Shown here piece after piece: positions 4,907 through 33,741 of a DNA stretch of 33,741 bases (positions are counted from its first letter, which is position 1; each line of letters opens with the position of its first letter). The DNA is from Burkholderiales bacterium (GTDB lineage: Bacteria > Pseudomonadota > Gammaproteobacteria > Burkholderiales > SG8-41): contig SYEN01000459.1 of assembly GCA_005800795.1 (NCBI GenBank), positions 1-33,741 of the forward strand, read 5' to 3'. A program made the position numbers and the translations under genes. The notes beneath the pieces are model-generated. The model saw only the letters and a list, made by a program, of their open reading frames with translations, made no database searches and was not told where the DNA came from.

Positions 4907-5880
4907 CTACTCAAGCCTGATGTTGGCCACCTTGACGATTTTCGCGTACTTTGCGGTCTCCGCACGAATGAAAGCACTAAACTCCGACGGCTCATTGCCG
5001 ACTGGTTCAGCCCCGATATTCGCGATTCTTTCCTTCACGTCGTTTAGCCGCAAGAGCTTGATCGTCTCGTTGTGCAGCCTTGCGATGGCGTCTTTATTGA
5101 CAGCCGAGGGCGCCACCAGACCCCACCACGTGTTCACTTCGACGCCGGGCACGCCGCCTTCCTTGACAGTGGGTACATCAGGCAACAACGGAGAACGCTG
5201 GGCAGCAGTAATGGCAATGGCGCGCAGCTTGCCTTGCCGTACCTGATTGATCACCGGCGGAACCGAGTCGAAGTTCATGTCGACGTGCCCCGCAATCAAA
5301 TCGATGAGCGCCTGGCCGCTCCCTTTGTACGGCACATGCAGCATGTCAACGCCCGACTGCAATTTGAAGAGTTCGGCAGCGAGGTGCTGAATGCTGCCCG
5401 CGCCCGAGGAGGCGTAGCGCATCTGACCGGGCCGCGCTTTCGCCAGCGCGACCAGATCCTTGACGCTTTTCACCGGCAGCGAGGGGTGCACCACCAATAG
5501 GTTGGGGCCGGTTGCCACCAGCGAGATGGTCGCAAAATCCCGCTGCGGATCATAGGGAAGTTTGGGCACCAACGAAGGCAGCACCGAGACCGCCGCAATA
5601 TGCGCCATCATGATGGTGTAGCCATCCGGCGCCGCTTTTGCGAGTTGTTCGGCGGCGAGTTGGCCTGCCGCGCCGCCACGGTTATCGATCAGCACCTGTT
5701 GGCCTAAAGTGTTTCCGACAGTTTTTGGCCGACGATACGACCGATGATATCGGTGCCGCCGCCGGGCGCGAACCCCACGAGCATACGTATACTCTTGGCC
5801 GGGTAGTCCTGAGCGAACGCTGTCCCGGAGAGCGTCAACACGAGTGCTATTGCTGCCGCTTTGGTCAGGTCAAATTTCAT
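4907..5880 (-). pseudogene. Bug/TctC-family periplasmic binding protein gene disrupted by a 2-nt insertion
   Basis: ATG at 5880 (AAGGAA SD) encodes MKFDLTKAAAIALVLTLSGTAFAQDYPAKSIRMLVGFAPGGGTDIIGRIVGQKLSETL, then TAG at 5704-5706. The rest of the protein (GQQVLIDNRGGAAG... to stop at 4907) continues in another frame. Deleting the TA at 5705-5706 restores ...SETLGQQVLIDNRGG. Confidence 0.75.
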
Positions 5881-5939: not shown

Positions 5940-6836
5940 CTACGCCGGCACCGCGACCCCCGCCTGCTCGCAGGTATTCGCCACATCGCCCACGGTCGCA
6001 CGGCGCATGTCGCGCACAAAGCGCATGTCATCGAAATCGGTGCCGCGATGCAGGGTACAGCGGTTGTCCCACATCACCAGATCGTTGACGCGCCAGCGGT
6101 GGGTATGGACAAACTGGCGTTGCGTGACGTGCGCGAGCAAATGCTGGAACAGCGCTTCGGCTTCCGCAGCCTCCATGCCTTTGATCGCACCGATATGCGA
6201 AGCAATATAGAGCGATTTGCGGCCGCTTTCGGGAATGGTGCGCACCAGTAATTGCGGCACCGGCGGCAGGCGTTGGGCTTCGCTTTCCTCAAACGTGGCA
6301 AACCCGGTTCGCTTGCGTGAATACTCGATGGCGTGCATGGCGATCAGGCCGTCAAGCTTTTGCTTCATGCCGGGCGGCAGGGCGTCGTAGGCCGCACGCT
6401 GATCGGCGAATTCGGTGTGGCCGCCGATGGGCACCACCTTCGTCGAATACAGCAGCGAACACACCCCCGGTTTGTATTTGAACGAGCTGTCGGTATGCCA
6501 CAGCTTGTTGCCTTCCTTGTAAAGCCGCTGGCGGCTGGCCTTGTCCCAGATTTTGCCTTCGCGGTTGAGATTCGAGATGTCGGCAAACGCATGCCCCAAC
6601 CGTGGATCGGTGTTCTCGGCGGCGAGCACGCGATCCATTTCGATGGGCCCGAACTGCTGCGCGAAATCCACGTGATTTTGCGGCGAGAGTTTTTGTTCTG
6701 GAAACACCAGCACGCCGTATTTCCAGAACACCTGTTTGATCGCGCTCATGTCCTCGGCAGATACCGGTTTGGACAGATCAACGTCGTAAATTTCAGCGAC
6801 GAAGTTGGGCGTGAGGGCATTGACGGTCAGGGTCAT
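5940..6836 (-). CDS. TfdA/TauD-family Fe(II)/2-oxoglutarate dioxygenase
   Basis: HxD iron motif (LWHTDSSFKYKP), distal His/Arg region (WDNRCTLHRGTDF...RRATV), and N-terminal pattern resembling TfdA. Confidence 0.85.
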   Translation of the reverse strand: MTLTVNALTPNFVAEIYDVDLSKPVSAEDMSAIKQVFWKYGVLVFPEQKLSPQNHVDFAQQFGPIEMDRVLAAENTDPRLGHAFADISNLNREGKIWDKASRQRLYKEGNKLWHTDSSFKYKPGVCSLLYSTKVVPIGGHTEFADQRAAYDALPPGMKQKLDGLIAMHAIEYSRKRTGFATFEESEAQRLPPVPQLLVRTIPESGRKSLYIASHIGAIKGMEAAEAEALFQHLLAHVTQRQFVHTHRWRVNDLVMWDNRCTLHRGTDFDDMRFVRDMRRATVGDVANTCEQAGVAVPA

Positions 6837-8065: not shown

Positions 8066-8986
8066 TCAGGCGGCGTGTGGTTGCGGCAGGTTGGCAAAAA
8101 AACTGTCCTGCGCCGCACCTGCCACGGTGGTGCGATGCATCTTGCGGCGGTACTGGGTCTTGTCAAAGGTGGTGGCACGGTGCAACACGCTGCGGTTGTC
8201 CCAGATCACCAGATCGTGCAGCCGCCACGGGTGGCTGTAGACAAAACGTGGCTGCGTACAAAATTCGGTGATCTCGGCGATCAGCGTGCGTGCTGCCTCG
8301 TGCGGCATTCCGTTAATGGCCTGCGCGTGCGCACCGGCGTAAAAATTCCTGCGGCCATTGACCGGGTTGATGCGAATCAGCGGGTGCGTCACGGTGAGGC
8401 GTTTTTTCTGTTCTTCGTTGTAGGCGGGATCGTCCTCGTCCTCGGGCTTGGCCACACGATGCACCGCGATCAAGTCTTCCAGCGCCGGCTTGCGCGCATC
8501 GGGGAACGCCGCATACGCCGCGCGGCCGCTGGCGAAATCGGTATTGCCGCCCACCGGCGGCACGATGCGCCCCGACAGCATGGAACACAACGCCGCGACT
8601 GGCTTGAATGAACTGTCCGTGTGCCAATGCTCGTTGCGCAAGCGGTGCTGCATGCCCGGGTCATCCAGCGGCAGCAGGTTGCCCTGCCCATCCAGATTGG
8701 TCATGACAGCAATGTGGCCCGGCTTGAAGTTGTTGGCCGGGTGAGCCTCCATGGTTTCGAGCGGGCCGAAGTTGCGGCTGAAGGCAATCTGCGTGTCGTC
8801 CTCAAAATTTTGGTCGCGCACCACCAGCACTTCGTATTGATTGAAGGCCTCCCAGATCGCGCGGAAATCCGCACGCGTTACGGGCACGGTGAGATCGACG
8901 CCGGTGACTTCGGCCACGAATAGCGGATGCAGCGGCTTAATGGTGATACCGGTGGCAGCAGATTGGGGATTGAGTACAGCGGACAT
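8066..8986 (-). CDS. TfdA/TauD-family Fe(II)/2-oxoglutarate dioxygenase
   Basis: HWHTDSSFKPV (HxD), WDNRSVLHRATTF...HRTTV, and a TfdA-like N-terminus (PLHPLFVAEVTGVDL). Confidence 0.85.
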   Translation of the reverse strand: MSAVLNPQSAATGITIKPLHPLFVAEVTGVDLTVPVTRADFRAIWEAFNQYEVLVVRDQNFEDDTQIAFSRNFGPLETMEAHPANNFKPGHIAVMTNLDGQGNLLPLDDPGMQHRLRNEHWHTDSSFKPVAALCSMLSGRIVPPVGGNTDFASGRAAYAAFPDARKPALEDLIAVHRVAKPEDEDDPAYNEEQKKRLTVTHPLIRINPVNGRRNFYAGAHAQAINGMPHEAARTLIAEITEFCTQPRFVYSHPWRLHDLVIWDNRSVLHRATTFDKTQYRRKMHRTTVAGAAQDSFFANLPQPHAA

Positions 8987-11452: not shown

Positions 11453-11481
11453 ATAAAAATGCAAATAAAACAAATTCTTAC
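11453..11481 (-). repeat. AT-rich boundary motif, strong copy (j), overlapping the start of a Bug gene
   Basis: The reverse strand reads GTAAGAATTTGTTTTATTTGCATTTTTAT, 24/29 to consensus. On the plus strand it supplies the ATG and the first codons (MQIKQILT) of the Bug protein. Confidence 0.55.
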
Positions 11482-12421
11482 AATTTCACTACTCTTTCAA
11501 GTAATGGCAAGTACCCACGCCGCCGATTACCCCACACGCCCGATTCGCCTGATCGTCGCGCAAACCGCCGGTGGCAATTCCGACATGGTGGCACGCGCCT
11601 ACGGCCAGCGGCTGGGTGAAAAACTCGGCCAGCAAATTGTGGTGGATAATCGCGGCGGCGGCTCCGGCATCATCGCCACCGAAATCGTCGTGAACGCACA
11701 GCCCAATGGTTATACGCTGCTGCTCTCCCCCACCGCGCACGCCATCAACCCCAGCCTGATCGCCAAGCTGCCGTACGACACGCAGCGCGACGTGAAAGCG
11801 ATTTCGCTGCTTGGCATCGGTTACAACATTCTGGTGGTCACGCAAAACCACGCAGCGCGCACCGTGCGCGATCTCATCAACAGCGCCAAGGCCCGGCCCG
11901 GCAAGGTCACTTATGCGTCGTCGGGAACGGCGGGTGCCTCGCATCTCACCGGCGAACTGTTTCGCGTGATGGCGGGCATCGACATCCTGCACGTGGCCTA
12001 CAAAGGTGCTCCCGCGTCGCTCACCGCGCTGGTCAGCGGCGAAATCGATTTCAGCTTCAGCAGCATGTCGAGCACGCTGCCGCTGGTGCGCGGCGGGCGG
12101 CTTCGCGCGCTGGGCGTATCGTCGCCCGAACGCTGGCCGTCGTTGCCAGAAATTCCCACCGTGTCCGAAGCCAGTGTTCCGGGTTATGAAAGCTCAAGCT
12201 GGCAGGGGCTCTTCGGCCCGGCCAAGTTACCGGTGAATCTGGTAACACGGCTGCACCGCGAACTCGCCGACATCGCCAAGACCGCAGACATGCAAAAGCG
12301 CCTATCCAACGAAGGTCTGCTGCCACAAGGCACTACACCGCAGGAATTTGAAAAATTCATCGCGGTGGAGATCGCCAAGTGGGCGAAGGTGGTCAAGGCG
12401 GCGGGGATTACGGCGCGGTGA
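11459..12421 (+). CDS. Bug/TctC-family periplasmic binding protein
   Basis: Signal peptide, then the family hallmark DYPTRPIRLIVAQTAGGNSDMVAR...VVVDNRGGGSG, and the C-terminal PQEFEKFIAVEIAKWAKVVKAAGI. Confidence 0.9.
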   Translation: MQIKQILTISLLFQVMASTHAADYPTRPIRLIVAQTAGGNSDMVARAYGQRLGEKLGQQIVVDNRGGGSGIIATEIVVNAQPNGYTLLLSPTAHAINPSLIAKLPYDTQRDVKAISLLGIGYNILVVTQNHAARTVRDLINSAKARPGKVTYASSGTAGASHLTGELFRVMAGIDILHVAYKGAPASLTALVSGEIDFSFSSMSSTLPLVRGGRLRALGVSSPERWPSLPEIPTVSEASVPGYESSSWQGLFGPAKLPVNLVTRLHRELADIAKTADMQKRLSNEGLLPQGTTPQEFEKFIAVEIAKWAKVVKAAGITAR

Positions 12422-17261: not shown

Positions 17262-17789
17262 ATGGCTCTCAAAGCGACCATTTTCAAGGCATCCGTGCAG
17301 GTCAGCGACATGGATCGCAACTATTACGCCACGCATGTGCTGACGCTGGCACGGCATCCGTCCGAAACCGACGAACGCATGATGGCGCGGCTGCTCGCGT
17401 TCGCGCTGCACGCGGATGAAAGGCTGGAATTCGGCAAGGGTGTGAGTGACGAAGACGAACCCGCGTTGTGGTTGCGGGATTTGACCGGCGCGATTCAGTT
17501 GTGGATTGAAGTCGGCCAGCCCGATGAAAAGCGGCTGCGCAAGGCCTGCGGGCGGGCGGCGCAGGTCGTGGTCTACAGCTACGGTGGTCCCGCCGCTGAA
17601 AAATGGCGCGCAGAGATCGCCGCCACTGCCGCGCGCACGCGCAACCTCAGCATCCGCACCATTCCGCGCGATGCCAGCCAGGCGATGGCGAAACTCGCGC
17701 AGCGCGGCATGGATCTAAGCTACACCGTGCAGGAGGGTCAGGTGTGGGTCAGCGCCGGGCAGGACACCGTGCAGGTGGCGGTGGGATAG
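17262..17789 (+). CDS. yaeQ: YaeQ family protein
   Basis: MALKATIFKASVQVSDMDRNYYATHVLTLARHPSETDERMMARLLAFALHADERLEF is almost colinear with E. coli YaeQ as I remember it. Confidence 0.9.
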   Translation: MALKATIFKASVQVSDMDRNYYATHVLTLARHPSETDERMMARLLAFALHADERLEFGKGVSDEDEPALWLRDLTGAIQLWIEVGQPDEKRLRKACGRAAQVVVYSYGGPAAEKWRAEIAATAARTRNLSIRTIPRDASQAMAKLAQRGMDLSYTVQEGQVWVSAGQDTVQVAVG

Positions 17790-17816: not shown

Positions 17817-18107
17817 ATGGAACTTGCCGGACTGATTCTGCTCTTATTGCTGGGCTTGCTGTGGTACGACAGCCTCAATGCGCGCGAAATCGCGGTGCGC
17901 GCTGCGCGGGAGGCGTGCGCATCGGAAGACCTGTTGTTTCTCGACGACACCGTCGGCATCCGCAGCCTGAAGCTCGCGCGCAACGCCGACGGCCATGTGC
18001 AGTTGCAGCGAGCGTATGATTTTGAATTCAGCGATACCGGCAACAATCGCTTGCAGGGCAGCGTGGTGTTGTTGGGAAAACACGTGGCGTTGCTCAATAT
18101 CGGTTAG
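17817..18107 (+). CDS. Small membrane-anchored protein, DUF3301-like
   Basis: N-terminal TM helix (LAGLILLLLLGLLWY), then REIAVRAAREACASEDLLFLDDTV...RAYDFEFSDTGNNRLQG, which fits my memory of DUF3301. Confidence 0.6.
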   Translation: MELAGLILLLLLGLLWYDSLNAREIAVRAAREACASEDLLFLDDTVGIRSLKLARNADGHVQLQRAYDFEFSDTGNNRLQGSVVLLGKHVALLNIG

Positions 18108-19164: not shown

Positions 19165-20826
19165 TCAATCCTTCATCAACGCAAACGTCCAAACCGACCC
19201 GCCGGTGGGGATAATCGCCCCTGCCGAACGGCTGGGATTACTGCCGCCACGCCCCGACAGCACACTGACGTACTGCTGGCCTTTGTGCGTGTAGGTGATG
19301 ACCGGCGCGTTGATGCTGGAGCCGGTTTTGAATTGCCACAACTGCTTGCCGTCGGCTTGATCCAGCGCGATTACTTCGCCGGTGAGTTTGCCGGTGAAGA
19401 GCAGGCCGCCGTCGGTGCCCAGCGTGCCCGCCGATACGGCAAAGTCACGCAGCGGAATCTTCCACGCGGTTTTGCCGGTGAGCGGATTCATCGCCACGTG
19501 GTAGCCGGTAATTTCAGGAATCTTGGAGCTGGATTCGACGCCGATGTAGCTTGCGCCGACCACCAGCTTCACGTCGACGAATTTCATCACGCGGAAAATT
19601 TCCCACGAATTCAAATACAGCATGCCGGTGCGCGGGTTGTACGCCGACAGTGAGGCGTTGGTGCCCAGCCGCGGATTGATGGCGATGGTTTCGCCTTTCA
19701 CCGCTTTATCGTAGAGATCGGTCAGCACCGGCCGGCCGGTTTTCAGATCAATGTATTTGGCCCAGTTCTGGTCGGTGTACGCGTGCGCGGCGATCGGCTT
19801 GCCGTTGGTGCGGTCGAGCACATATACGAAACCATTCTTGTTGACGTTGATCAGCACCTTGCGCGGCTTGCCGTCGATCTGAATGTCGGCGACGATGTTC
19901 TCCGCCGTGGCGTCGTAGTCGTAGCTGTCGTTCGGCATGAATTGGTAGTACCACACCATCTCGCCGGTCTTGGGTTTGATCGCGATCACACTGGCGGCAA
20001 ACAGGCTGTCCATGCCTTCGCGGTATTTCGGGTTGTACGGTTCGGCGTTGCCGGTGCCGACAAACACCAGATCCAGTTCCGGATCGTAGGTCACCGGCTG
20101 CCACGTCGCCGCGCCGCCGTACTTCCACGCATCAGGCTGCGTGGCGTTCGGCCACGTTTCCGAGCCCGGCTCGCCGGGCGCGGGCACCGTCCAGCGCCGC
20201 CACAGTTGCTTGCCGGTGTCCGGATCGTAGCCGTCGATGAAGCCGCGCGCGGTACGGTCACCGCCCGCCATGCCGGAAATCAGCACGCCATTGGCGATCA
20301 TCGGCTGCACGATGCCGCCATAGCTTTCTTTCCATTCGCCGAATTTGGTTTTCCACAACTCCTTGCCGGTTTTCATGTCGAGCGCCTGCACATGCCCGTC
20401 GATGTTTTGCCGGAAGAGCTTGCCGTTGTAGATAGTCGCGTGGCCGCGCAGATACGCGCCGCCGGTGGTTACGCGCAACGCAGCGCGGTCGTACGTCACA
20501 GGCGTGCGCCAGATCTGGCGACCGGTGGCAATGTCGATGGCGAAGGTCCAGTTGCCGTTCACGACGTACATCACGCCGTTGTAGACGGTGGGTTGCGCCA
20601 GCTCACCCATGTCGTTGGCGAGACTGAAACTCCACACCGGCACCAGCCGCTTGACGTTGGATTTGTTGATCTGATTCAACGGGCTCCAACTGCGCGCGTG
20701 ATACCCCATGCCGTGCGTCAACACGTTATCGGTGTTCTTGCCGTCGTTCTGCAGCTCGTCCGTGGTCTGCGAAAAACTTGAATTGAAACAAATACTTAAC
20801 AATGCGCCTGCCAGTAGCTTTTTCAT
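19165..20826 (-). CDS. Divergent PQQ-dependent dehydrogenase (methanol/ethanol-family fold), paralogue A
   Basis: Full-length similarity to 8-bladed quinoprotein dehydrogenases (NVLTHGMGY..SPLNQINKSNVKRLVPVW, IDGYDPDTGKQLWR, YDPELDLVFVGTGNAEPYNPKYR, DSYDYDA, LDRTNGKPI, ITYTHKGQQYVSV). The ATG at 20826 has AAGGGAGA upstream and opens a signal peptide (MKKLLAGALLSICFNSSFS). Confidence 0.85.
   Translation of the reverse strand: MKKLLAGALLSICFNSSFSQTTDELQNDGKNTDNVLTHGMGYHARSWSPLNQINKSNVKRLVPVWSFSLANDMGELAQPTVYNGVMYVVNGNWTFAIDIATGRQIWRTPVTYDRAALRVTTGGAYLRGHATIYNGKLFRQNIDGHVQALDMKTGKELWKTKFGEWKESYGGIVQPMIANGVLISGMAGGDRTARGFIDGYDPDTGKQLWRRWTVPAPGEPGSETWPNATQPDAWKYGGAATWQPVTYDPELDLVFVGTGNAEPYNPKYREGMDSLFAASVIAIKPKTGEMVWYYQFMPNDSYDYDATAENIVADIQIDGKPRKVLINVNKNGFVYVLDRTNGKPIAAHAYTDQNWAKYIDLKTGRPVLTDLYDKAVKGETIAINPRLGTNASLSAYNPRTGMLYLNSWEIFRVMKFVDVKLVVGASYIGVESSSKIPEITGYHVAMNPLTGKTAWKIPLRDFAVSAGTLGTDGGLLFTGKLTGEVIALDQADGKQLWQFKTGSSINAPVITYTHKGQQYVSVLSGRGGSNPSRSAGAIIPTGGSVWTFALMKD
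20771..20799 (-). repeat. AT-rich boundary motif copy (k) embedded in the signal-peptide codons of PQQ paralogue A
   Basis: The reverse strand reads TTAAGTATTTGTTTCAATTCAAGTTTTTC, 23/29 to consensus. It encodes LSICFNSSFS. Confidence 0.5.
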
Positions 20827-20860
20827 TGGTGATCTCCCTTGATGCATCGAATGATGCAAG

Positions 20861-20899
20861 ACACAAAATGATCCCCTCGCCCCGTTTAAGGGGAGAGGG
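20861..20899 (-). terminator. Candidate intrinsic terminator/attenuator between the cytochrome c gene and PQQ paralogue A
   Basis: A 10-bp stem with one mismatch, CCCTCGCCCC (20874-20883) with GGGGAGAGGG (20890-20899), and loop GTTTAA. On the minus strand it is followed by GATCATTTTGTG. Confidence 0.4.
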
Positions 20900-20911
20900 C
20901 GTATTGCACTA

Positions 20912-21217
20912 CTACTTTTCCCCCTGCGAAAAATAAGCCCACAGCGCTTCGATCTGATCCGGCTTTAACACATCGCCCCACGGCGGCATGTTGCCGCGGC
21001 CATTGGCCACCGACTGAATAAACCGCCGGTGATCGTCCTTGGGTATGGTGGCCAGATCGACCGCCCACTCCGGATTTTTCATGTGATTGCCATGGCAGGT
21101 GGCGCAGTGCAGGGCGTAAATTTCACTGCCGGCTTTGATCTGTGCCGGGGTCACGGCCGTTTGCGCCCAGGCTGTTGCACCCCATAACGCCAATCCAAAT
21201 ATTGCCGTTCGCTTCAT
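20912..21217 (-). CDS. Small periplasmic class I c-type cytochrome
   Basis: Signal peptide (MKRTAIFGLALWGATAWA), heme motif CATCH, and a distal Met region (GRGNMPPWG). The start lies 4 nt after the stop of PQQ paralogue B. Confidence 0.85.
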   Translation of the reverse strand: MKRTAIFGLALWGATAWAQTAVTPAQIKAGSEIYALHCATCHGNHMKNPEWAVDLATIPKDDHRRFIQSVANGRGNMPPWGDVLKPDQIEALWAYFSQGEK

Positions 21218-21221
21218 CCGC

Positions 21222-22895
21222 TTACTCCGGCATCAGGGCAAAGGTCATGACCGAGCCGCCGGCCGGCACGGCATTGGCGGTGTAGCGCGCGGAGGAGATG
21301 CCGCCGCGGCCCACCTGCACCGACACATACTGCACGCCCTTGTGCGTGTAGGTGATGGGCGGCGCATTGACGCTCGAAGCGGTTTTGAACGACCACAGTT
21401 GTTTGCCGCTGTCGATATCCAGCGCGATCATTTCACCCGTCAGCTTGCCGGTGAACAACAGCCCGCCGCCAGTGGCGAGCATGCCGGCGGAACTCGGCAT
21501 ATCCCACAGCGGCGTCTCCCAAACCACTTTACCGGTTAGCGGCTCGATGGCGCGATGATGACCGACCGGTTCGCCCTTGGGATTCAGGCCTGTGGATTCG
21601 ATGCCGGTGGTGTTGCCGCCCAAAATGTGCTTGACCTCAACATACTTCATCACCCGCGCGAAGTTCCAGGTGTTGGCGTAAACCAGATTGGTGCGCGGAT
21701 TGAAAGCAATCAGCGTGGCGTTGGTACCGCGCGACGGCCACACATCAACCGTTTCACCTTTCAATGCGCGGTCAAGCAAGTCGGTATAGACCGGGCGACC
21801 GGTCTTCATATCAATGTGCGACGCCCAGTTCACACGCACATAGGGATTGGCCGCAATCAGCTGGCCGTTGGTGCGATCGAGCACATAGAGAAAGCCGCCC
21901 TTGTGCGCGTTAATCAATACCTTGCGCATTTTGCCCTCGACGCGCAAATCGGTAATCATCCATTCCGCATTGGCATCGAAGTCATACGGATCATTGGGCG
22001 TGGTCTGGTAGTACCACACCACTTCGCCCGTCTTCGGCCGCAGCGCCAGCACACAGGTGGTGCACAGGCTGTCCATGCCGTCGCGATACTTCGGGTTATA
22101 GGGCTGCGCGTTGCCGGTGCCGATGTAGACCAGATCAAGCTCCGGGTCGTACGATGCCGCCTGCCATGTCGCGCCGCCGCCGTATTTCCAGGCATCGGGC
22201 CAGGTTTTGTGCGGCCAGGTCTCGGAACCTTTTTCGCCGGGCGCGGGAATCGTCCAGGTTCGCCACAGGCGCTTGCCGGTATTCGGGTCGTAACCATCGA
22301 CAAACCCGCGCGTGGTGCTGTCGCCGCCGCTCATGCCGGACACCAGCACGCCATTGAACACCGCCGGCGCCACTGTGCCGCGACAACCCTCCACGAACGT
22401 TTCGCAGAATTTGGTGCGCCAGATTTCCTTGCCGGTTTTCATGTCGAGCGCGACCACATGCGCATCGAGCGTCTGGCGGAACAGCTTGCCTTCGTAAATC
22501 GTTGCAGCACCGCGCATGATGGCACCGGTGGACGCCACCCGCAGCGCCCCACGATCGTAGTTCACCGGCGTACGCCACAGTTGTTTGCCAGTGGCGACAT
22601 CAATGGCGAAGGTCCATTCGGCATTCACCACATACATCACACCGTCGTATACCGTCGGCTGCGCCAGTTCACCGTTGTTGTTGGCCGTGCTGAAATGCCA
22701 CACCGGCACCAACCGCTTGACGTTCGACTTGTTGATTTGCCGCAGCGGGCTCCAAGCCTTCAAGTCGTAGCCCATGCCGAAGTTCAGCACGTTGTCGGTG
22801 TTTTTCTGATTGCGGATATCGTCCAGCGTTTGCGCCTGGACCAGCGCACTGCAGGCCAACACGACAGCGCATACCAAGTATTTGATTTTAAACAT
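21222..22895 (-). CDS. Divergent PQQ-dependent dehydrogenase, paralogue B
   Basis: Colinear with A and C (NVLNFGMGY, VDGYDPNTGKRLWR, DPYDFDA, ITYTHKGVQYVSV). Signal peptide MFKIKYLVCAVVLACSALVQA. It carries extra Cys pairs (CETFVEGC, CTTC) that A and C lack. Confidence 0.85.
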   Translation of the reverse strand: MFKIKYLVCAVVLACSALVQAQTLDDIRNQKNTDNVLNFGMGYDLKAWSPLRQINKSNVKRLVPVWHFSTANNNGELAQPTVYDGVMYVVNAEWTFAIDVATGKQLWRTPVNYDRGALRVASTGAIMRGAATIYEGKLFRQTLDAHVVALDMKTGKEIWRTKFCETFVEGCRGTVAPAVFNGVLVSGMSGGDSTTRGFVDGYDPNTGKRLWRTWTIPAPGEKGSETWPHKTWPDAWKYGGGATWQAASYDPELDLVYIGTGNAQPYNPKYRDGMDSLCTTCVLALRPKTGEVVWYYQTTPNDPYDFDANAEWMITDLRVEGKMRKVLINAHKGGFLYVLDRTNGQLIAANPYVRVNWASHIDMKTGRPVYTDLLDRALKGETVDVWPSRGTNATLIAFNPRTNLVYANTWNFARVMKYVEVKHILGGNTTGIESTGLNPKGEPVGHHRAIEPLTGKVVWETPLWDMPSSAGMLATGGGLLFTGKLTGEMIALDIDSGKQLWSFKTASSVNAPPITYTHKGVQYVSVQVGRGGISSARYTANAVPAGGSVMTFALMPE

Positions 22896-22902
22896 TATTT
22901 TA
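22874..22902 (+). repeat. AT-rich boundary motif, subfamily II copy (l), spanning the PQQ-C stop and PQQ-B start
   Basis: CCAAGTATTTGATTTTAAACATTATTTTA is very similar to copy (f). The reverse strand has AATCAA-ATAC-TTG, an IHF core. It contains both the ATG of paralogue B and the TAA of paralogue C. Confidence 0.45.
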
Positions 22903-24570
22903 TTCTGGCATCAAAGCAAAAGTCCACACCGATCCACCTGTCGGCACCACCGCGCCCGCAGAACGATTGGGGTTGCTGCCGCCACGCCCCGACAGCACGG
23001 TGACGTATTGAACGCCCTTGTGGGTATAGGTAATCGGTGGCGCGTTAACGCTGGAACCGGTCTTGAATTGCCACAGCTGCTTGCCGGTATCCTGATCCAG
23101 CGCCACCACTTCGCCGGTAAGCCTGCCGGTGAACAACAGGCCGCTGTCGGTGGCCAGCGTGCCCGCGGAAATGCCATAGTCGTAAATCGGATTCTTCCAT
23201 GCCACCTTGCCCGTCACCGGGTTGATCGCAATCGAATACGCCAGCGGCTCGCCCTTGGGCGGATTCTTGAAACTGGTTTGAATGCCGGTGTAGCCGGCGC
23301 CGATCACCAGTTTCACATCCACGAATTTCATCACCCGTATCGCTTCCCAGGAATTGAGGAACATCAATCCGGTTTTCGGGTTGTAGGCAGACAGGGTGGC
23401 GTTGGTGGCGCGGGCTGGATTCATCTCGACCGTTTCGCCATTGATCGCGCGCTCCAGCAAATCGGTCAATACCGGTCGCCCGGTCTTCAGATCGATCTCC
23501 TTCGCCCAGTTCTGGTTGGTAAATGGCCGCGCCGAGATCAACTGGCCGTTGGTACGGTCCAGCACATACAAGAAGCCATTCTTGTTGGCGTTGAACAAGA
23601 CCTTGCGTGGCTTGCCGTCAATGCGCACGTCGGCGAGGATGCTTTCCTGGCTGCCGTCAAAATCGAAGCTGTCGTTCGGCACATACTGGTAGTGCCACAC
23701 CAGCTCGCCGGTTTTCGGGCGGATCGCCAGTTGCGTCGCGGCGAAAAGGCTGTCCATGCCCATGCGGTACTTCGGGTTATAGGGCTGCGCATTGCCGGTG
23801 CCGACATAATACAAATCGAGTTCCGGGTCGTACGAACCTGCTTGCCAGGTCGCGCCGCCGCCATATTTCCATGCGTCAGGCATCTCCTTGTTGGGCCAAG
23901 TCTCTGAACCTTTCTCGCCCGGCGCAGGTATCGTCCAGGTGCGCCACAGACGCTTGCCGGTATCCGGGTCGTAGCCTTCGACAAAACCGCGCGCGGTGCG
24001 GTCGCCGCCAGCCATGTGATTGATCAGCACGCCGTTGACAATCATCGGCTGGATCACGCCGATGTAACTTTCTTTCCACTCGCCAAATTTTTCCTTCCAC
24101 ACCTCTTTGCCGGTCTTCATATCGAGAGCAACCACGTGCCCGTCGATGTTTTGCCGGAACAGCTTGCCGTTGTAGATAGCCGCCGCACCGCGCAAAAACG
24201 CGCCCGCGCTGCCGATGCGCAGCGCGCCACGGTCATAATTGGCGGGCGTACGCCAGATTTGCCGGCCGGTGGCCACATCGATGGCGAACGTCCAGTTGCC
24301 GTTCACCACGTACATCACGCCGTTGTAGACCGTGGGTTGCGACAGCTCGCCCATGTCGTTGGCGGTGCTGAAGTTCCATATCGGCACCAGCCGCCTCACG
24401 TTCGACTTGGTGATTTGCTTCAACGGGCTGAACATCTTCAGGTCATAGCCCGCGCCCAGATGCAGCACGTTTTCCAGATTTTGTGACGGGTTGAGTAACT
24501 CTTCGCTGGTTTGCGCGGCCGCAAGTCCACATGCCGCACAGAGCAACCCTGCCATGGCGTAGCGTTTCAT
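22900..24570 (-). CDS. Divergent PQQ-dependent dehydrogenase, paralogue C
   Basis: Colinear with A (NVLHLGAGY, VEGYDPDTGKRLWR, DSFDFDG, ITYTHKGVQYVTV). Signal peptide MKRYAMAGLLCAACGLAAA. GGGAGGA lies upstream of the ATG. Confidence 0.85.
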   Translation of the reverse strand: MKRYAMAGLLCAACGLAAAQTSEELLNPSQNLENVLHLGAGYDLKMFSPLKQITKSNVRRLVPIWNFSTANDMGELSQPTVYNGVMYVVNGNWTFAIDVATGRQIWRTPANYDRGALRIGSAGAFLRGAAAIYNGKLFRQNIDGHVVALDMKTGKEVWKEKFGEWKESYIGVIQPMIVNGVLINHMAGGDRTARGFVEGYDPDTGKRLWRTWTIPAPGEKGSETWPNKEMPDAWKYGGGATWQAGSYDPELDLYYVGTGNAQPYNPKYRMGMDSLFAATQLAIRPKTGELVWHYQYVPNDSFDFDGSQESILADVRIDGKPRKVLFNANKNGFLYVLDRTNGQLISARPFTNQNWAKEIDLKTGRPVLTDLLERAINGETVEMNPARATNATLSAYNPKTGLMFLNSWEAIRVMKFVDVKLVIGAGYTGIQTSFKNPPKGEPLAYSIAINPVTGKVAWKNPIYDYGISAGTLATDSGLLFTGRLTGEVVALDQDTGKQLWQFKTGSSVNAPPITYTHKGVQYVTVLSGRGGSNPNRSAGAVVPTGGSVWTFALMPE

Positions 24571-24626
24571 AAGTCCTCCCTTGACGTTTGACGCAGGCGA
24601 ACTTTATACCGTGAAGCCCCGCGCCG

Positions 24627-25571
24627 CTACTGCACCGGACTAATATTCGCGTCCTTCATCAACTTCGTCCACTTGGCGGTCTCGGCTTGCAGCCGGGCAA
24701 CGAACTCGGCTGGGGTGCTTGGCGCAGGCTCTACACCCAGCGGCAGCATGCGCTCTTGCATATCAGCGCTCATCACGGCCTTGGTGGCCGTGGCATTGAC
24801 CTTGGCAATGATGTGTTTGGGTGTGCCCAGTGGCGCAAGCAAGCCGTGCCAACCCAGCACCTCAAAGCCCGCCAGCGTCTCCGCAATCGGTGGCGCATCG
24901 GGCGCCAGACGCGTGCGCTGCAAGGTGGCCACGCCCAGCGTGCGCACGCGGCCGGCTTTCACATACGTCGGCAACGACGGCAGCGGCTGGCACGACAGCT
25001 GCACCTGCCCACCGGCCAGATCCACCAGCGAAGGCGTGCCGCCCTTGTAAGCCACGTGCAACATGCTGATACCCGCAAGCCGCTGAAACAACTCCGTACA
25101 CATATGCGAAGTAGAACCCTGACCATTCGACGCAAACAACAACTTACCCGGCCGCGCCTTGGCGTAAGCGATGAACTCCGCCAACGTATTCGCCGGCACG
25201 CTGCTGTTGATGGCGATGGCAAACGCCGTGTTCGACAACATACCGATAGGTGCGTAATCCTTCACCATCCAGTTACGCTGAAACATCATTGAACCGAGCA
25301 TTTGCGTTGACGTCGCAAACCACAAGGTGTAACCATCCGGCGCGGCTTTGGCGACCAGATCGCCGCTGATCATGCCCGTGGCGCCCGGCCGCGGATCCAC
25401 CACCACCTGCTGGCCCCAGGCTTCGGTGAGCTTGGCCGCGAGATGACGCGCGATGACTTCGGGGCCGGAGCCAGGCGTGGCGGCGGTGATCAGGCGGATG
25501 GGTTTGGTGGGGTAGGCACGAGCGTCCTGGGCAAGCGTTGCCATCAGGCAGATAACGAATGCACAGGCCAT
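24627..25571 (-). CDS. Bug/TctC-family periplasmic binding protein
   Basis: AYPTKPIRLITAATPGSGPEVIAR...VVVDPRPGATG hallmark and C-terminal PAEFVARLQAETAKWTKLMKDANI. I chose the start at the ATG 21 codons inside the listed ORF (MACAFVICLMATLAQDARA signal peptide). The longer GTG start would overlap the toxin remnant. Confidence 0.8.
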   Translation of the reverse strand: MACAFVICLMATLAQDARAYPTKPIRLITAATPGSGPEVIARHLAAKLTEAWGQQVVVDPRPGATGMISGDLVAKAAPDGYTLWFATSTQMLGSMMFQRNWMVKDYAPIGMLSNTAFAIAINSSVPANTLAEFIAYAKARPGKLLFASNGQGSTSHMCTELFQRLAGISMLHVAYKGGTPSLVDLAGGQVQLSCQPLPSLPTYVKAGRVRTLGVATLQRTRLAPDAPPIAETLAGFEVLGWHGLLAPLGTPKHIIAKVNATATKAVMSADMQERMLPLGVEPAPSTPAEFVARLQAETAKWTKLMKDANISPVQ

Positions 25572-25981: not shown

Positions 25982-26319
25982 CGCCCCAAGCTACACAGCA
26001 TCGCATGGTTCGCCACAACCGCGCCGGGCATGTCGGTGCTGAAAACACATGCCAATAGCGGGCGGCTGCGTGCGCTGGCGATGTCCAGCGCCAAACGTTT
26101 GGCAATCACGCCGGATATTCCCACCCTTGCCGAGGCCAGCCTCAAGGATTATCAAAGCAAATCGTGGAACGCACTGGCGGCACCGCGCCAGACGCCGGAG
26201 GCCATCGTGCTGCGCCTGAATCGCGCGATGAGCGCGCTGTTGAGCTCGCGCGCTACGCGCGCGAGGAAATCGTGCGTTTTCAGCCGTTGGTGCAAAGCAT
26301 CGGCTTGAAGCCGGAATAG
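25982..26319 (+). pseudogene. 3' fragment of a Bug/TctC gene, with internal deletion and frameshift
   Basis: After an in-frame TGA at 25979-25981 the frame reads ...IAWFATTAPGMSVLKTHANSGRLRALAMSSAKRLAITPDIPTLAEASLKDYQSKSWNALAAPRQTPEAIVLRLNRAM. This aligns to roughly the last third of the intact Bug gene at 11459. The normal C-terminus (ELARYAREEIVRFQPLVQSIGLKPE, stop 26317-26319) is in another frame, and about 25 residues between the two parts are missing. No N-terminal two-thirds is present. Confidence 0.75.
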
Positions 26320-26425
26320 GCGCAAATCCGGGCGCCACACGGGTGACAAGCCTGCACCGTGGGCGTAGCATGATGTTTTTGCCGCAGCCGGTGTCTTGAT
26401 ACTTCGCCATCAGGAGATTCGCATC

Positions 26426-27322
26426 ATGCCCATGCAGATACGCCCACTGGGGCCGTTCATCGGCGCCGAGGTTGATGGCATCGACTTGCGCGAGCCGTTG
26501 ACGCCCGCGCAGGCCGAGGCCATTCATCACGGCATGGATCGTTACGCGGTGCTGGTGTTTCGTGGCCAGCCGCTGACCAACGATCAGCACATGGCCTTCA
26601 CGCTGGCGCTGGGGCCGCTTGAAACCACACAAAAAAATGTCATGCGCAGCGCCAGCGGCGAATTCCGCATCCCCGATTCTTTCAACGACGTTTCCAACCT
26701 CGACCGCAACAACCAGCCTTACGCGCCCGGCGACCGCAAGCGCCTGTTCGCCATCGGCAACCGCCTGTGGCATTCCGATTCGTCGTTCAAGGTGGTGCCA
26801 GCAAAATATTCGCTGCTGCGCGCAGTGCGCATTCCGTCGGCAGGCGGCAACACTGAGTTCGCCCACATGGGCGCCGCCTACGAGGCGCTTGACGGGGACA
26901 CCAGGGACCTGATCGAGCCGTTGATCTGCGAACACTCGCAACTCTTTTCGCGCGACGTCATCGGCTTTCGTGAATTCTCGCCGGAGGAACGTGAGCGCTT
27001 CAAGCCGGTGCGTCAGCGGCTAGTGCGCACACTGCCGCGCACGGGGCGAAAATCAATTTATCTCTCGTCGCACGCCGGCACGATCATGGGTTGGCAGTTA
27101 CCCGAAGCACGGTTGTTGCTGCACGATTTGACCGAGCACGCCACACAGCGCGAGTTCGTCTATTCGCACCGCTGGCAGGTGAACGATCTGGTAATGTGGG
27201 ACAACCGCCAGACCATGCATCGCGGGCGGCCTTTCCCGCCTGAAGAACCGCGCGACGTCCGTCGCACCACCATCAAAGGGCACGCGCCGACGGTGGAACA
27301 GCAGGAAGCGGTTGCGGCATAA
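26426..27322 (+). CDS. TfdA/TauD-family Fe(II)/2-oxoglutarate dioxygenase (tandem copy 1)
   Basis: LWHSDSSFK (HxD), WDNRQTMHRGRPF, RRTTI. The ATG at 26426 has an AGGAGA upstream. The listed start at 26396 is upstream of the SD. Confidence 0.85.
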   Translation: MPMQIRPLGPFIGAEVDGIDLREPLTPAQAEAIHHGMDRYAVLVFRGQPLTNDQHMAFTLALGPLETTQKNVMRSASGEFRIPDSFNDVSNLDRNNQPYAPGDRKRLFAIGNRLWHSDSSFKVVPAKYSLLRAVRIPSAGGNTEFAHMGAAYEALDGDTRDLIEPLICEHSQLFSRDVIGFREFSPEERERFKPVRQRLVRTLPRTGRKSIYLSSHAGTIMGWQLPEARLLLHDLTEHATQREFVYSHRWQVNDLVMWDNRQTMHRGRPFPPEEPRDVRRTTIKGHAPTVEQQEAVAA

Positions 27323-27351: not shown

Positions 27352-28251
27352 ATGACCCTGCAAATACGCCCGTTGGGGCCGTTCATCGGCGCCAAGGTTG
27401 ACGGCATTGATCTGCGTGAGCCGCTGACGCCCGCACAGGCTGAGGCCATCCACGATGGCATGGATCGCCACGCAGTACTGGTGTTTCACGATCAGCCCGT
27501 CACCAACGAGCAGCATCTGGCGTTTACACAGGCGCTGGGGCCGCTGGAAAACACCGCGAAAAACACCCTGCGTGCGGCGGAGGATTTCCGGCTGCCGCCG
27601 ATGTTTGCCGATGTATCGAATCTCGACGGCAACAACCAGCCGTTCGGACGCGATGACCGCAAGCGCCTCTTTGCCATCGGCAACCGGCTGTGGCATTCCG
27701 ATTCGTCGTTCAAGGCCATCCCCGCAAAATATTCGCTGCTGCGGGCGGTGCGCGTGCCCTCAAAAGGCGGCAACACCGAGTTTGCGCACATGGGCGCGGC
27801 TTACGAGGCGCTCGACAACGACACCAGGGCCTTGATTGAACCGTTGATTTGCGAACACTCACAGATGTTTTCGCGCGATCTCATTGGCTTTCGTGAGTTT
27901 TCAGCCGAGGAGCGCGAGCGCTTCAAGCCGGTGCGCCAGCGGCTGGTGCGCACGCTGGCGCGCACCGGGCGCAAATCACTGTATCTGTCCTCGCACGCCG
28001 GCACCATTCTCGGCTGGCAATTGCCGGAAGCGCGGCTGCTGCTGCGCGATTTGGCCGAGCATGCCACGCAGCGCGAGTTTGTGTATTCGCACAAGTGGCG
28101 CGTCAATGATCTGGTGATGTGGGACAACCGACAGGCCATGCATCGCGGTCGGCCGTTCCCGGTTGAGGAAGCGCGTGACGTGCGCCGCACGACCATTTCT
28201 GGTGACGTGCCTACCGTGGCGCAGGCCGAAGAAGAAGCCGCCGCCGCGTGA
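27352..28251 (+). CDS. TfdA/TauD-family Fe(II)/2-oxoglutarate dioxygenase (tandem copy 2)
   Basis: Colinear with copy 1 over its whole length. AGGAGA SD and the same HxD / H / R motifs. Confidence 0.9.
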   Translation: MTLQIRPLGPFIGAKVDGIDLREPLTPAQAEAIHDGMDRHAVLVFHDQPVTNEQHLAFTQALGPLENTAKNTLRAAEDFRLPPMFADVSNLDGNNQPFGRDDRKRLFAIGNRLWHSDSSFKAIPAKYSLLRAVRVPSKGGNTEFAHMGAAYEALDNDTRALIEPLICEHSQMFSRDLIGFREFSAEERERFKPVRQRLVRTLARTGRKSLYLSSHAGTILGWQLPEARLLLRDLAEHATQREFVYSHKWRVNDLVMWDNRQAMHRGRPFPVEEARDVRRTTISGDVPTVAQAEEEAAAA

Positions 28252-31321: not shown

Positions 31322-32335
31322 TTAATCGATGCGCGTGTTGGTGGTTTTCACGAGCTTGGCCCAACGCGCGATTTCGCTCTTCATGTAGGCGCCCAGTTCT
31401 TCCGGCGACGTGCCGATGGGTTCAAACGCTTCCGTCATCAGGCGCTGGCGCAAATCGTTGTACTTCAAGGCCGCGAGAAACTCCCGATTTAACCGCGCGA
31501 TGATTTCCGGGGGCGCGCCCGCCGGCGCCAGCACGCCATACCACACCGCCGAGTCGTAACCCGGAATACTTTCCGCGATGGCAGGCAAATCGGGCAGCGC
31601 CGCCGAGCGTTTGGTCGTGGTGACACCCAGCGCACGCAAGCGCCCCACGCGAATAAAACTGTTGCTGCTGGTGTACGTGAGATAACTCAGTTGCAACTGC
31701 CCCGCCACCAGATCGACCATCGCCGGACCGCCGCCCTTGTACGGCACATGCACCATTTTCACATTCGCCAGCGAATTCAACATGGCGCCCGCCAGATGCG
31801 CACCGCTGCCGTTGCCGCCGGAGCCAAAGCGCAAGTCATCGGGCTTGGCCCGCGCCAGCGCCACCAGTTCCTTGACTGACTTCACCGGCAGCGCGGGATG
31901 CACCGTCAACACATAAGGCGCAATACCCAACAGCGAAACCGGCGTGTAGTCGCGCACCGGATCATACGGCAGCTTGGGATACAAACTCGGATTCACCGCC
32001 AGCTGTGCGGTAATCGCGAACACCAGCGTGTAACCATCCGCCGGCGACTTGGCGACATGTTCCATGCCGATATTGCCGCCCGCCCCGCCGCGATTTTCCA
32101 CCACCATTTGCTGGCCCAGGTTGGCGCTGATCAACTGCGCCAGCGGCCGTGCAATGATATCGGTGCCCCCGCCGGGTGGATAAGGCAGCACGAGGCGGAC
32201 GGGTTTGACGGGGTAGCCCTGTCCCGCGCCTGTCGAAGGGGTTTGTGCGTGCAGCGGCGGCGCAACGAAAAACCATGCCGCAAGCGGCATTGCCCCCATC
32301 GTAGCCGTTGTAGCAGCTCGAACCAAAGACCCCAT
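31322..32335 (-). CDS. Bug/TctC-family periplasmic binding protein
   Basis: GYPVKPVRLVLPYPPGGGTDIIARP...MVVENRGGAGG hallmark and C-terminal PEELGAYMKSEIARWAKLVKTTN. I trimmed the start to the ATG at 32335 (MGSLVRAATTATMGAMPLAAWFFVAPPLHA). The ATG at 32299 is also possible. The listed 32602 start would overlap the divergent gene. Confidence 0.8.
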   Translation of the reverse strand: MGSLVRAATTATMGAMPLAAWFFVAPPLHAQTPSTGAGQGYPVKPVRLVLPYPPGGGTDIIARPLAQLISANLGQQMVVENRGGAGGNIGMEHVAKSPADGYTLVFAITAQLAVNPSLYPKLPYDPVRDYTPVSLLGIAPYVLTVHPALPVKSVKELVALARAKPDDLRFGSGGNGSGAHLAGAMLNSLANVKMVHVPYKGGGPAMVDLVAGQLQLSYLTYTSSNSFIRVGRLRALGVTTTKRSAALPDLPAIAESIPGYDSAVWYGVLAPAGAPPEIIARLNREFLAALKYNDLRQRLMTEAFEPIGTSPEELGAYMKSEIARWAKLVKTTNTRID

Positions 32336-32525
32336 CACAGACTGTTCCCGCGCGAAGAATGAGTGCGGATTTTGTGGCAAGGGCTGCTTTATGTCCATCC
32401 CGCGCGCCTGCAAAGTCACGGCGCCGCAGCGCAGTCCACAACACGGCCCGGCGAACGTAGCTGGTGCGTCATTGCCGGTCGCAGGTTTTGACGCGATACT
32501 TCTGCAAACCCGTGCCGGATTACCC

Positions 32526-33741
32526 ATGCCAACCAAAACCTCTCTATCTGCAAGCAAGGAAAAAACCGGCTTCGCTGCGTTTATCGACTTGCGCGACTCC
32601 ACCTATGTGTGGAACCTGAATGCCGACATCGCTGAAGAAATCCTGAATGATCTGAATGATGTTACCGTTACGCAAACCAAAATGTGGGACGGCAAAATTG
32701 GCAATTTCACCGGCGATGGTTTTTTGCTGTTGTTCGAGCAGGCAGAGTTTGCGATACGCGGTCTGGCGGCGGTGATCAACGCATGGGAAGAACGCCGTGA
32801 GCACTACCGCACCAAACTGCAGCGCGTCAAAGTTCCGCTGCCGGACGAACAACATTCGTTGAGCTTGCGCACAGGGGTCGCGTTTGGCAATTACCGTAGA
32901 ATTTCCAGCGGAAAACTGAAAGGCAATGTCGCCGGCGAAGCCATCAACCACGCCAGCCGTTGCGAGGGCGCCAGCAAGGCGCACTTTGAAGCCATCATTG
33001 AAAACGCGCCCGCATCGTTGAACTCACATCAACGCGTGTTTATCGCCGCCAGCGTGTACAACCTGATCAGCAAAAAGACGGACTATTGGTATTCCACGCA
33101 ACTAAAGGTTGAGCACAAAGGTTACGAACAATCCACTGGGGGCGGCCCGGTAAAGACCACGGATTTCATCTACGCGTTCTGGCCCAAGGCAGATCAGCTC
33201 CCTGGCGCAACTGCCCAAACTCCCAAGCCCACGCTGCAACGCGTCGCCGCGGCAACTGCCCAAAGTAACGCAGCCGACCGCTTGCTAGAAGCCAAAGGCA
33301 AAATTGCGGTGGGCGACGAACTGAGCGATGCGGCACAAGGCGCGCTGGGCAAAACCGCCCGCGACGTGCTAAGCCGCGCCATAGCAGCCTACCGGGCTGC
33401 ACTCAAGACCATTCACAGCGGCGATGCCCCCTCATACTATGCCAGCACACAAAACAAGCTGGGCAACGCGCTCCGTGATCAGGCCAACCTGCTGGCGGGC
33501 GAAGACCGCGCAAACCGGCTCAAGGAAGCAGTCGAGGCTTATCGCGAGGCGCTGAAGGTCGCCACGCCGGAAGCCGCGCCCGCTGACTACGCCATGACGC
33601 AGAACAATCTGGGCAACGCGCTCCAAAATCAGGCCAACCTGCTGGCGGGCAAAGACCGCGCAAATCGGCTCAACAAAGCGGTCGAAGCTTATCGCGAGGC
33701 GCTAAAGGTCACCACGCTCGAAGCCGCGCCCGCTGACTACG
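32526..33741 (+). CDS. Class III nucleotidyl cyclase-like domain fused to TPR-like repeats (3' end outside window); not in the supplied ORF track
   Basis: My own translation from the ATG at 32526 finds no stop to the window end (405 codons). It begins MPTKTSLSASKEKTGFAAFIDLRDSTYVW...IGNFTGDGFLLLF...LRTGVAFGNY...VAGEAINHASRCEG...HKGYEQ, which is the cyclase homology domain pattern F.D..G.T / GD..m..F / R.G...G / G..VN.AsR.e. It then continues into repeats such as YAMTQNNLGNALQNQANLLAGKDRANRLNKAVEAYREALKV. No plus-strand ORF is listed here, consistent with an ORF finder that requires a stop codon. Confidence 0.75.
   Translation, partial: MPTKTSLSASKEKTGFAAFIDLRDSTYVWNLNADIAEEILNDLNDVTVTQTKMWDGKIGNFTGDGFLLLFEQAEFAIRGLAAVINAWEERREHYRTKLQRVKVPLPDEQHSLSLRTGVAFGNYRRISSGKLKGNVAGEAINHASRCEGASKAHFEAIIENAPASLNSHQRVFIAASVYNLISKKTDYWYSTQLKVEHKGYEQSTGGGPVKTTDFIYAFWPKADQLPGATAQTPKPTLQRVAAATAQSNAADRLLEAKGKIAVGDELSDAAQGALGKTARDVLSRAIAAYRAALKTIHSGDAPSYYASTQNKLGNALRDQANLLAGEDRANRLKEAVEAYREALKVATPEAAPADYAMTQNNLGNALQNQANLLAGKDRANRLNKAVEAYREALKVTTLEAAPADY
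33435..33741 (+). repeat. Tandem near-identical coding repeats of 153 and 150 bp (third unit starts at the window edge)
   Basis: Unit 1 (33435-33587) and unit 2 (33588-33737) differ at only scattered positions. Both encode Y(Y)A.TQN.LGNAL..QANLLAG.DRANRL..AVEAYREALKV.T.EAAPAD. The sequence ends with the TAC that starts the next unit. Confidence 0.8.

Follow-up and report, generated by a model that had tools for sequence, protein, structure and literature searches.

To our knowledge, the pyrroloquinoline quinone (PQQ) enzymes that depend on lanthanides are the sole known lanthanide enzymes, and those characterized are of the XoxF and ExaF/PedH types only. PQQ is normally capped by a vicinal disulfide, and this disulfide was long held necessary for electron transfer to cytochrome c. 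Here we describe a locus in 33,741 nucleotides of DNA from a Burkholderiales bacterium (contig SYEN01000459.1 of assembly GCA_005800795.1; the whole of this stretch is designated the “window”), at which three PQQ dehydrogenase-like proteins, PQQ-A, PQQ-B and PQQ-C, are encoded together with a small cytochrome c and, upstream, a solute-binding protein of the Bug/TctC family. All three proteins lack the vicinal cysteines, carry Asp in place of a Glu metal ligand and have the extra Asp of the D-x-D motif. Judging from the sequences, they are probably active periplasmic PQQ/lanthanide dehydrogenases that feed electrons to the adjacent cytochrome c.

Enzymes of the PedH/ExaF type (type 2b; structures 6ZCV and 6ZCW) share with the window proteins a soluble eight-bladed propeller of ∼550–600 amino acids without a fused heme domain, the D-(F/Y)-D motif, the Asn and catalytic Asp ligands, the stacking Trp and Arg111, with Foldseek template modeling (TM) scores of 0.83–0.85. 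PedH has Cys-Cys, Glu, Arg344, Trp414 and Trp489, whereas the window proteins have small residues, Asp, Lys, Ala and Ser at these sites; identity is about 33–36% (280–289 bits), and the two occupy separate tree branches. The closest sequence matches in the PDB are the type II quinohemoproteins of the alcohol dehydrogenase (ADH) IIB kind (1KV9; also 1YIQ and 1KB0), which likewise have Lys at the Arg331/344 position. The best of these for PQQ-B, 1kv9, scores 323 bits (E = 2.4e-95); matches within the clade to which the window proteins belong score 880 bits or more. ADH IIB enzymes carry a fused heme domain, a Ca-type D-F-T, Cys-Cys and Glu, whereas the window has a separate cytochrome gene, the product of which weakly matches the C-terminal heme domains of 1YIQ and 1KV9.

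XoxF and MxaF share with the window proteins the fold and the catalytic Asp, XoxF also has D-Y-D, and their operons embody the same idea of a dehydrogenase, a cytochrome and a periplasmic binding protein. Compared with xoxFGJ and mxaFJGI, the window operon has no small subunit, and its dehydrogenases are not nested in XoxF clades, lack Cys-Cys and have Asp in place of Glu. Precedent for solved, active PQQ-ADHs without a vicinal disulfide is provided by 4CVB (Pseudogluconobacter saccharoketogenes) and 7WMD (DepA, which oxidizes deoxynivalenol). Both are soluble and eight-bladed and read NSLGAAKR at the aligned Cys-Cys site, are about 27% identical to the window proteins (166–174 bits), and have Ca ligands that differ from those of the methanol/ethanol type. 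The 2015 paper on 4CVB by Rozeboom et al. is reported to propose direct electron transfer from PQQ to an associated cytochrome c.

The family assignment was made with hidden Markov models, alignments and a fold model. Each of the three proteins matched PF01011 (E about 1e-61 to 1e-66) and passed narrowly the cutoff of 480.05 bits for TIGR03075 (PQQ dehydrogenase, methanol/ethanol family; scores in Table 1). An AlphaFold2 model of PQQ-B (pLDDT 80, pTM 0.85) gave 1flg, 7o6z and 6zcv as the top Foldseek matches, with TM scores of 0.83–0.86. A preliminary description of the locus had called the three proteins colinear with eight-bladed methanol/ethanol-type quinoproteins, and the model matches, alignments and PQQ-B fold bear this out. 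The proteins are 64–71% identical to one another and end with the propeller (553–557 amino acids) with no fused C-terminal cytochrome c domain, the cytochrome being encoded by a separate open reading frame (ORF) of 101 amino acids. Signal-peptide-like N-termini are present in the sequences of all four proteins of the oxidation module.

Active-site residues were checked by HMMER alignment to solved structures and in a MAFFT alignment of 109 family members with ExaA (1flg), ADH IIB (1kv9), PedH (6zcv) and a XoxF (7o6z) as references; residue numbers below are those of ExaA unless otherwise stated. The preliminary description had claimed the loss of the vicinal cysteines, of the Glu metal ligand and of the Asn ligand, together with the presence of D-(Y/F)-D. 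In the alignments, the CC of all four references falls on TG, ST or SA, and Asp aligns in register with Glu179, four residues ahead of RG, so that neither a canonical Cys-Cys nor a canonical Glu was found. DYD, DFD and DFD align with DFD of PedH and DYD of XoxF. The loss of the Asn ligand was a mis-registration: Asn266 of ExaA sits in GAGNPGPW, which reads GTGNA(E/Q)PYN here with the Asn kept, and the position judged earlier, in GGGTNW, varies even among canonical enzymes. (The MxaF equivalent of Asn266 is Asn261 in GSGNPAPW.) What had been termed a remodeled metal sphere therefore comes down to a single altered position, the Glu that has become Asp.

Further changes lie around the cofactor. 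In all three proteins Glu61 is replaced by Leu, Trp414 by Ala and Trp489 by Ser; Glu61 and Trp489 correspond to Glu55 and Trp476 of MxaF, which contact the pyrrole and C2-carboxylate side of PQQ. Arg344 is Lys in all three, as it is in ADH IIB. PQQ-A and PQQ-C have in addition Ile or Val for Thr155 and Ala for Ser176, whereas PQQ-B retains both the Thr and the Ser contact. Kept in the window proteins are the stacking Trp248, Arg111, Lys344, Asn413, Asn266, Asp316 and Asp318. The resulting key-residue signature is L, TG, R, I, A, D, W, N, D, D, K, N, A, S for PQQ-A and L, SA, R, V, A, D, W, N, D, D, K, N, A, S for PQQ-C. Mature PQQ-A and PQQ-C contain no Cys at all. PQQ-B has four clade-specific cysteines (C164, C171, C278 and C281) that are conserved in 28 of 30 orthologues of the LST type and missing from the other paralogues. 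The C164/C171 pair lies just ahead of the PQQ-contact Thr, and C278/C281 form a CxxC (DSLCTTC) at a site that reads Y/F-x-x-S in other family members; these pairs may be new disulfides.

A search of 5.8 billion proteins returned 6577 matches. The best 120 were at least 68% identical, bore generic names where they were named, and came, where an organism was given, from metagenome-assembled genomes (MAGs) of uncultured Burkholderiales or Betaproteobacteria. A genome scan yielded 78 loci. The closest of these (89% identity) belong to betaproteobacterial MAGs from fresh water and soil, and the cultured bacteria with such genes include Polynucleobacter kasalickyi and P. rarus, at 64–65% identity. 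Among 180 distinct sequences of the Cys-less clade, every one is invariant at Arg111, Trp248, Asn266, Asp316, Asp318, Lys344 and Asn413, and every one lacks Cys-Cys, with free variation among Gly, Ser, Thr and Ala at the two former Cys positions. Asp occupies the Glu site in 139 of them and Glu in the other 41, a split as expected for a carboxylate ligand. Ratios of nonsynonymous to synonymous substitution (dN/dS), calculated against the orthologues in locus L001 of the scan, are 0.077 for PQQ-A (93% identical there), 0.084 for PQQ-B, 0.097 for the cytochrome and 0.075 for Bug. Because dN/dS is low and the core residues are invariant, the sequences indicate that the genes are functional and the active site constrained.

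Several observations concern the history of the individual genes. PQQ-C is not orthologous to the first gene of loci L001, L002, L005, L006 and L008, where an HGG-type paralogue occupies the slot; in the tree it groups with A-like paralogues (71–74% identity to PQQ-A orthologues). The first operon slot has therefore undergone replacement or re-duplication in this lineage. Three soil MAG loci (L025, 7932–15136; L030, 7228–12668; L034, 1–5616) contain arrays of three or four PQQ genes in which a Cys-Cys paralogue of the QCC..E..R.WQ form is mixed with Cys-less paralogues of the Glu and Asp types, with one cytochrome c gene after the array; these are natural side-by-side comparison sets. Note that four lake MAG contigs (L007, L010, L055 and L056) are titled “MAG: Bordetella parapertussis” but look like mislabeled uncultured freshwater Burkholderiales.

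In a neighbor-joining tree, for which the four reference structures stood as the known enzymes, the window proteins belong to a nested series: QCC..E..R.WW forms from Bradyrhizobium and other Alphaproteobacteria; a TCC..E..K.AS clade from betaproteobacterial MAGs that keeps Cys-Cys and Glu; a clade in which Cys-Cys is deleted (L--..E..K.AS), from Acidobacteriota and others; and the Cys-less, mostly Asp-bearing clade that includes the window proteins. D-x-D is carried by every member of the series, and TIGR03075 scores drop along it from about 600 bits at the canonical end to about 485, those of the sister clades spanning about 500 to about 600 bits. Glu is kept in all three sister clades and Cys-Cys in the TCC and QCC clades, whereas the K-A-S pocket changes are common to the window, TCC and CC-deleted clades. 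Members of the CC-deleted clade (loci L047–L054 and L078, from Acidobacteriota, Gemmatimonadota and others) have Glu and D-x-D, and their Cys-Cys is deleted rather than substituted. ExaA, PedH, ADH IIB and XoxF all fall outside the series, nesting in a characterized clade was not seen, and the window clade also stands apart from the proteins of XoxF5-like loci.

The suggestion in the preliminary description of an uncharacterized quinoprotein clade thus holds insofar as the clade is coherent and has no characterized or solved member, but its novelty is lower than implied, because the active enzymes 4CVB and 7WMD also lack Cys-Cys and because both changes recur in other uncharacterized clades. 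On the sequences sampled, neither the loss of Cys-Cys nor the change of Glu to Asp is unique to this clade: among the 100 full-length representatives, clustered at 50% identity, that lie nearest PQQ-B, the vicinal cysteines are missing from 40, Asp stands at the Glu site in 32, and both features occur together with D-x-D in 14. This set contains no close representative of the clade (the best is 48% identical) and is unusable for sizing it. NCBIfam has no model specific to the clade, and literature searches for a published name or type yielded just the list of Keltjens types and statements of a general kind. For the Keltjens types, 1 to 9, reference proteins include Methylibium WP_011829190 (type 5) and Paraburkholderia EDT10345 (type 7; PMC8561711, Table S3). 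A 2024 review notes quinoproteins in heterotrophic marine Thaumarchaeota that lack Cys-Cys and bear DYD, and states that the function of such proteins “remains completely unknown” (PMC11845868, PMC7300363).

The cytochrome has a CATCH heme motif and an NMPPW Met ligand in a class I c domain of ∼80 residues. Its PDB matches are CcoP (4e-9), the heme domains of 1yiq (1.9e-6) and 1kv9 (3.8e-5), and c6. A homologue adjoins the PQQ gene in 36 of 43 Cys-less loci, in 5 of 6 TCC-K.AS loci and in 16 of 17 QCC-R.WW loci; the figure is 1 of 9 for the CC-deleted acidobacterial clade, which may for that reason use another electron acceptor. From its sequence and position, the cytochrome is the predicted electron acceptor of the dehydrogenases. 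Identity as cytochrome cL/XoxG was rejected (TIGR03872, 20 bits against a cutoff of 147.8), as was identity as PedF (TIGR04494, 26 bits against 122). The analogy to xoxFGJ/mxaFJG drawn in the preliminary description is accordingly loose, since the cytochrome is not cL and the binding protein is TctC/Bug and not MxaJ. By analogy, the arrangement resembles a split quinohemoprotein more than it does xoxFG.

Cofactor binding, the use of a lanthanide, the path of the electrons and the function of Bug are inferred from these comparisons, and the following scheme is to be read in that light. The locus would be a periplasmic oxidation module in which three type I eight-bladed PQQ dehydrogenases are served by a small class I cytochrome c of their own. 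The propeller axis would hold PQQ together with a trivalent lanthanide, and an alcohol, aldehyde or sugar-like substrate would be oxidized with Asp316 as the base. Reduced PQQ would then hand single electrons directly to the co-encoded cytochrome c, which would pass them to a terminal oxidase. Small residues (Gly, Ser, Thr or Ala) take the place of the PQQ-capping disulfide, and Leu or His, Ala and Ser that of the pyrrole-side Glu61, Trp414 and Trp489, respectively. With small residues instead of the disulfide cap and two Trp, the pocket should be more open or differently shaped, and with Asp as a ligand instead of Glu the geometry at the metal should change. Substrate range probably differs among the three paralogues.

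Several points weigh against this scheme. The TIGR03075 margin is just 3–19 bits. Of the seven classical equatorial PQQ contacts, which are E55, R109, T159, S174, R331, N394 and W476 in MxaF, the Glu and the Trp are replaced in all three proteins and the Thr and Ser in PQQ-A and PQQ-C. Asp occurs at the Glu site in none of the four solved enzymes aligned. Neither Pfam scans of the main ORFs nor a search for the PqqA motif found PQQ biosynthesis genes in the window, in agreement with the preliminary description, and Pfam scans found no lanthanide-uptake genes. Finally, Bug genes are so dense in this genome that adjacency of Bug and PQQ genes means little by itself.

Loss of the Cys-Cys cap, Glu61, Trp414 and Trp489, and in PQQ-A and PQQ-C of Thr155 and Ser176 as well, could mean that these are “empty” or differently loaded propellers that do without PQQ, hold some other ligand or none, and have a binding, scaffold or other non-redox role, like the proposed acidobacterial “empty quinoprotein” families. 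The lack of pqq genes in the window and a secondary match to TIGR04528 (“acido-empty quinoprotein” group A) fit such a role. That match is 354–384 bits for PQQ-A, PQQ-B and PQQ-C and 386–424 bits for the sister clades, far under the cutoff of 650, and membership in TIGR04528 was rejected. The residues at the core of the PQQ and metal sites are in place. Without a PQQ-metal site, it would be difficult to account for the invariance of the catalytic Asp, metal ligands, stacking Trp, Arg, Lys and Asn; conservation of a dedicated cytochrome c beside the gene and a dN/dS of about 0.08 also speak against empty propellers. Core residue invariance and cytochrome linkage together argue against lost PQQ binding, and we consider empty propellers highly improbable.

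The choice of metal can be questioned separately. The proteins might be active PQQ dehydrogenases that use Ca2+ or a promiscuous range of metals, with D-x-D inherited from lanthanide-type ancestors and the shorter side chain of Asp, still a carboxylate, re-tuning the site to another ion. The change of Glu to Asp does alter the first coordination sphere, lanthanide-uptake genes are missing from the window, and metal-cofactor heterogeneity is described within PQQ-ADH families (PMC11996626). The extra Asp is, on the other hand, invariant in all 180 sequences, and one subclade retains Glu alongside D-x-D. D-x-D is used as a lanthanide marker in recent surveys, and the extra Asp goes with lanthanide binding in every structurally tested case cited there (PMC11996626). 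A calcium or mixed-metal enzyme is thus unlikely, and lanthanide use remains the reading that we favor.

Five Bug/TctC genes, listed as four full-length genes and a fragment, occur in the 33.7 kb of the window. Bug-PQQ-PQQ-cyt-PQQ is the gene order that the window shares with the closest MAGs, and Bug orthologues (487–608 bits) lie directly upstream of PQQ genes solely in the closest loci (L001, L002, L004, L010 and L014). A possible role for the upstream Bug protein is to bind a carboxylate, either product or substrate, so that it can be taken up, although the functional link is weak. Alternatively, the Bug protein could be an MxaJ/XoxJ-like accessory factor needed for maturation or activity of the dehydrogenases, and neither a transport receptor nor an unrelated neighbor. 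A gap of 56 nucleotides separates it from PQQ-C downstream on the same strand, its orthologues hold the same position in the five loci just named, and it is under purifying selection, all of which would suit an accessory factor. Its fold family differs from that of MxaJ, however, being PF03401 with no NCBIfam match, to MxaJ or any other model, at E ≤ 0.01, and equivalence to MxaJ/XoxJ was rejected. Linkage is also missing from most of the 43 loci, and chance adjacency is likely where Bug genes are so abundant. We give an accessory role little credence.

All features of the locus are collected in Table 1, together with other genes of the window. The gene layout given in the preliminary description (five minus-strand ORFs, 4-nucleotide gaps, a hairpin and a Shine-Dalgarno sequence) was confirmed at its coordinates. 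PQQ-C and PQQ-B, and PQQ-B and the cytochrome c gene, are separated by 4 nucleotides each, by both coordinates and sequence. The start of the Bug ORF is ambiguous: it could be the ATG at 25571 or a GTG at 25634, which gives a more typical signal peptide. The 89-nucleotide spacer between the cytochrome c gene and PQQ-A folds with −31.2 kcal/mol (z = −2.84) and contains a GC-rich hairpin with arms CCCUCUCCCC and GGGGCGAGGG, followed by a weak U-tract, AUCAUUUUGUGU. This hairpin may be a partial terminator or an mRNA-stabilizing element; it was missed by a consensus terminator scan, and consensus scans for promoters and terminators gave hits at background level. The Shine-Dalgarno sequence AAGGGAGA precedes the ATG of PQQ-A by 6 nucleotides.

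Table 1. Positions of the genes and sequence elements discussed, in window coordinates.
Feature	Position	Strand	Evidence or remark
Bug/TctC solute-binding protein, full-length, upstream of PQQ-C	24627–25571	minus	PF03401 194 bits, residues 40–309 of 314
PQQ-C, 556 aa, Cys-less paralogue	22900–24570	minus	PF01011 2.1e-61; TIGR03075 486.5 bits
PQQ-B, 557 aa, without vicinal Cys-Cys	21222–22895	minus	PF01011 8.6e-66; TIGR03075 499.0 bits
Small class I cytochrome c, 101 aa, predicted periplasmic	20912–21217	minus	PF13442 1.5e-15
GC-rich hairpin, cytochrome c/PQQ-A spacer	20874–20899	minus	sequence and folding
Shine-Dalgarno sequence of PQQ-A (ATG at 20826)	20833–20840	minus	read from sequence
PQQ-A, 553 aa, Cys-less paralogue	19165–20826	minus	PF01011 5.6e-66; TIGR03075 482.7 bits
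Bug gene, full-length	4907–5695		
Bug gene, full-length	11459–12421		
Bug gene, full-length	31322–32602		
ORF like C-terminal part of Bug/TctC	25982–26305	plus	34 bits to operon Bug
TauD/TfdA-family dioxygenase	5940–6836		
TauD/TfdA-family dioxygenase	8066–8986		
TauD/TfdA-family dioxygenase	26396–27322		
TauD/TfdA-family dioxygenase	27352–28251		
VIT-domain protein, 1022 aa	12932–16000	minus	TPR; weak DUF2135
YaeQ	17262–17789		
DUF3301	17817–18107		
Pro/Ala-rich protein, 294 aa	18169–19053	plus	no Pfam match at E = 0.1

The fragment related to Bug, found between the operon and the TauD genes, is probably what remains of a Bug gene. Two of the four TauD/TfdA-family dioxygenase genes are in tandem, and other genes of the window encode amidohydrolases, alpha/beta hydrolases, an asparaginase, a lactonase-type propeller and a metallo-beta-lactamase (MBL)-fold protein; the window looks like a catabolic neighborhood for unspecified organic substrates. 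The 294-residue protein encoded downstream of the operon has a hydrophobic segment at the N-terminus and a long stretch rich in Pro and Ala, and it recurs in that position, with DUF3301 and YaeQ, in 11 related loci. A scan of 43 loci for conserved neighbors that might point to substrate, PQQ supply or lanthanide uptake gave just Bug genes and simple shared synteny, in which a Pro-rich protein and an alpha/beta hydrolase accompany YaeQ and DUF3301. The 1022-residue protein, in which the VIT domain is N-terminal, has no relation to the PQQ operon.

A bolder form of the lanthanide reading is that the clade is a distinct mechanistic class of lanthanide quinoprotein, in which the disulfide is dispensable, the pyrrole/carboxylate pocket is rebuilt, and the change of Glu to Asp re-tunes metal selectivity, e.g., among lanthanide radii. 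Under it, a modified cofactor might take the place of PQQ in the rebuilt pocket, and the CxxC and second Cys pair of B-type proteins might take over a redox or structural role. We regard such a class as very unlikely. The probable reading, of PQQ/lanthanide dehydrogenases that feed the adjacent cytochrome, already joins a lanthanide signature with two changes that bear on the role of the disulfide and on metal choice. It raises the question of what purpose the vicinal disulfide serves, if it can be lost from an enzyme that has its own cytochrome c partner, and that of how replacing a first-sphere Glu with Asp affects the choice of metal. Practical stakes would stay modest until substrate and metal are shown. 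The clade is abundant in freshwater and soil betaproteobacterial MAGs, the natural D/E polymorphism within it and the sister clades that bear Cys-Cys are ready-made comparison sets, and its presence in cultured Polynucleobacter could make it experimentally accessible.

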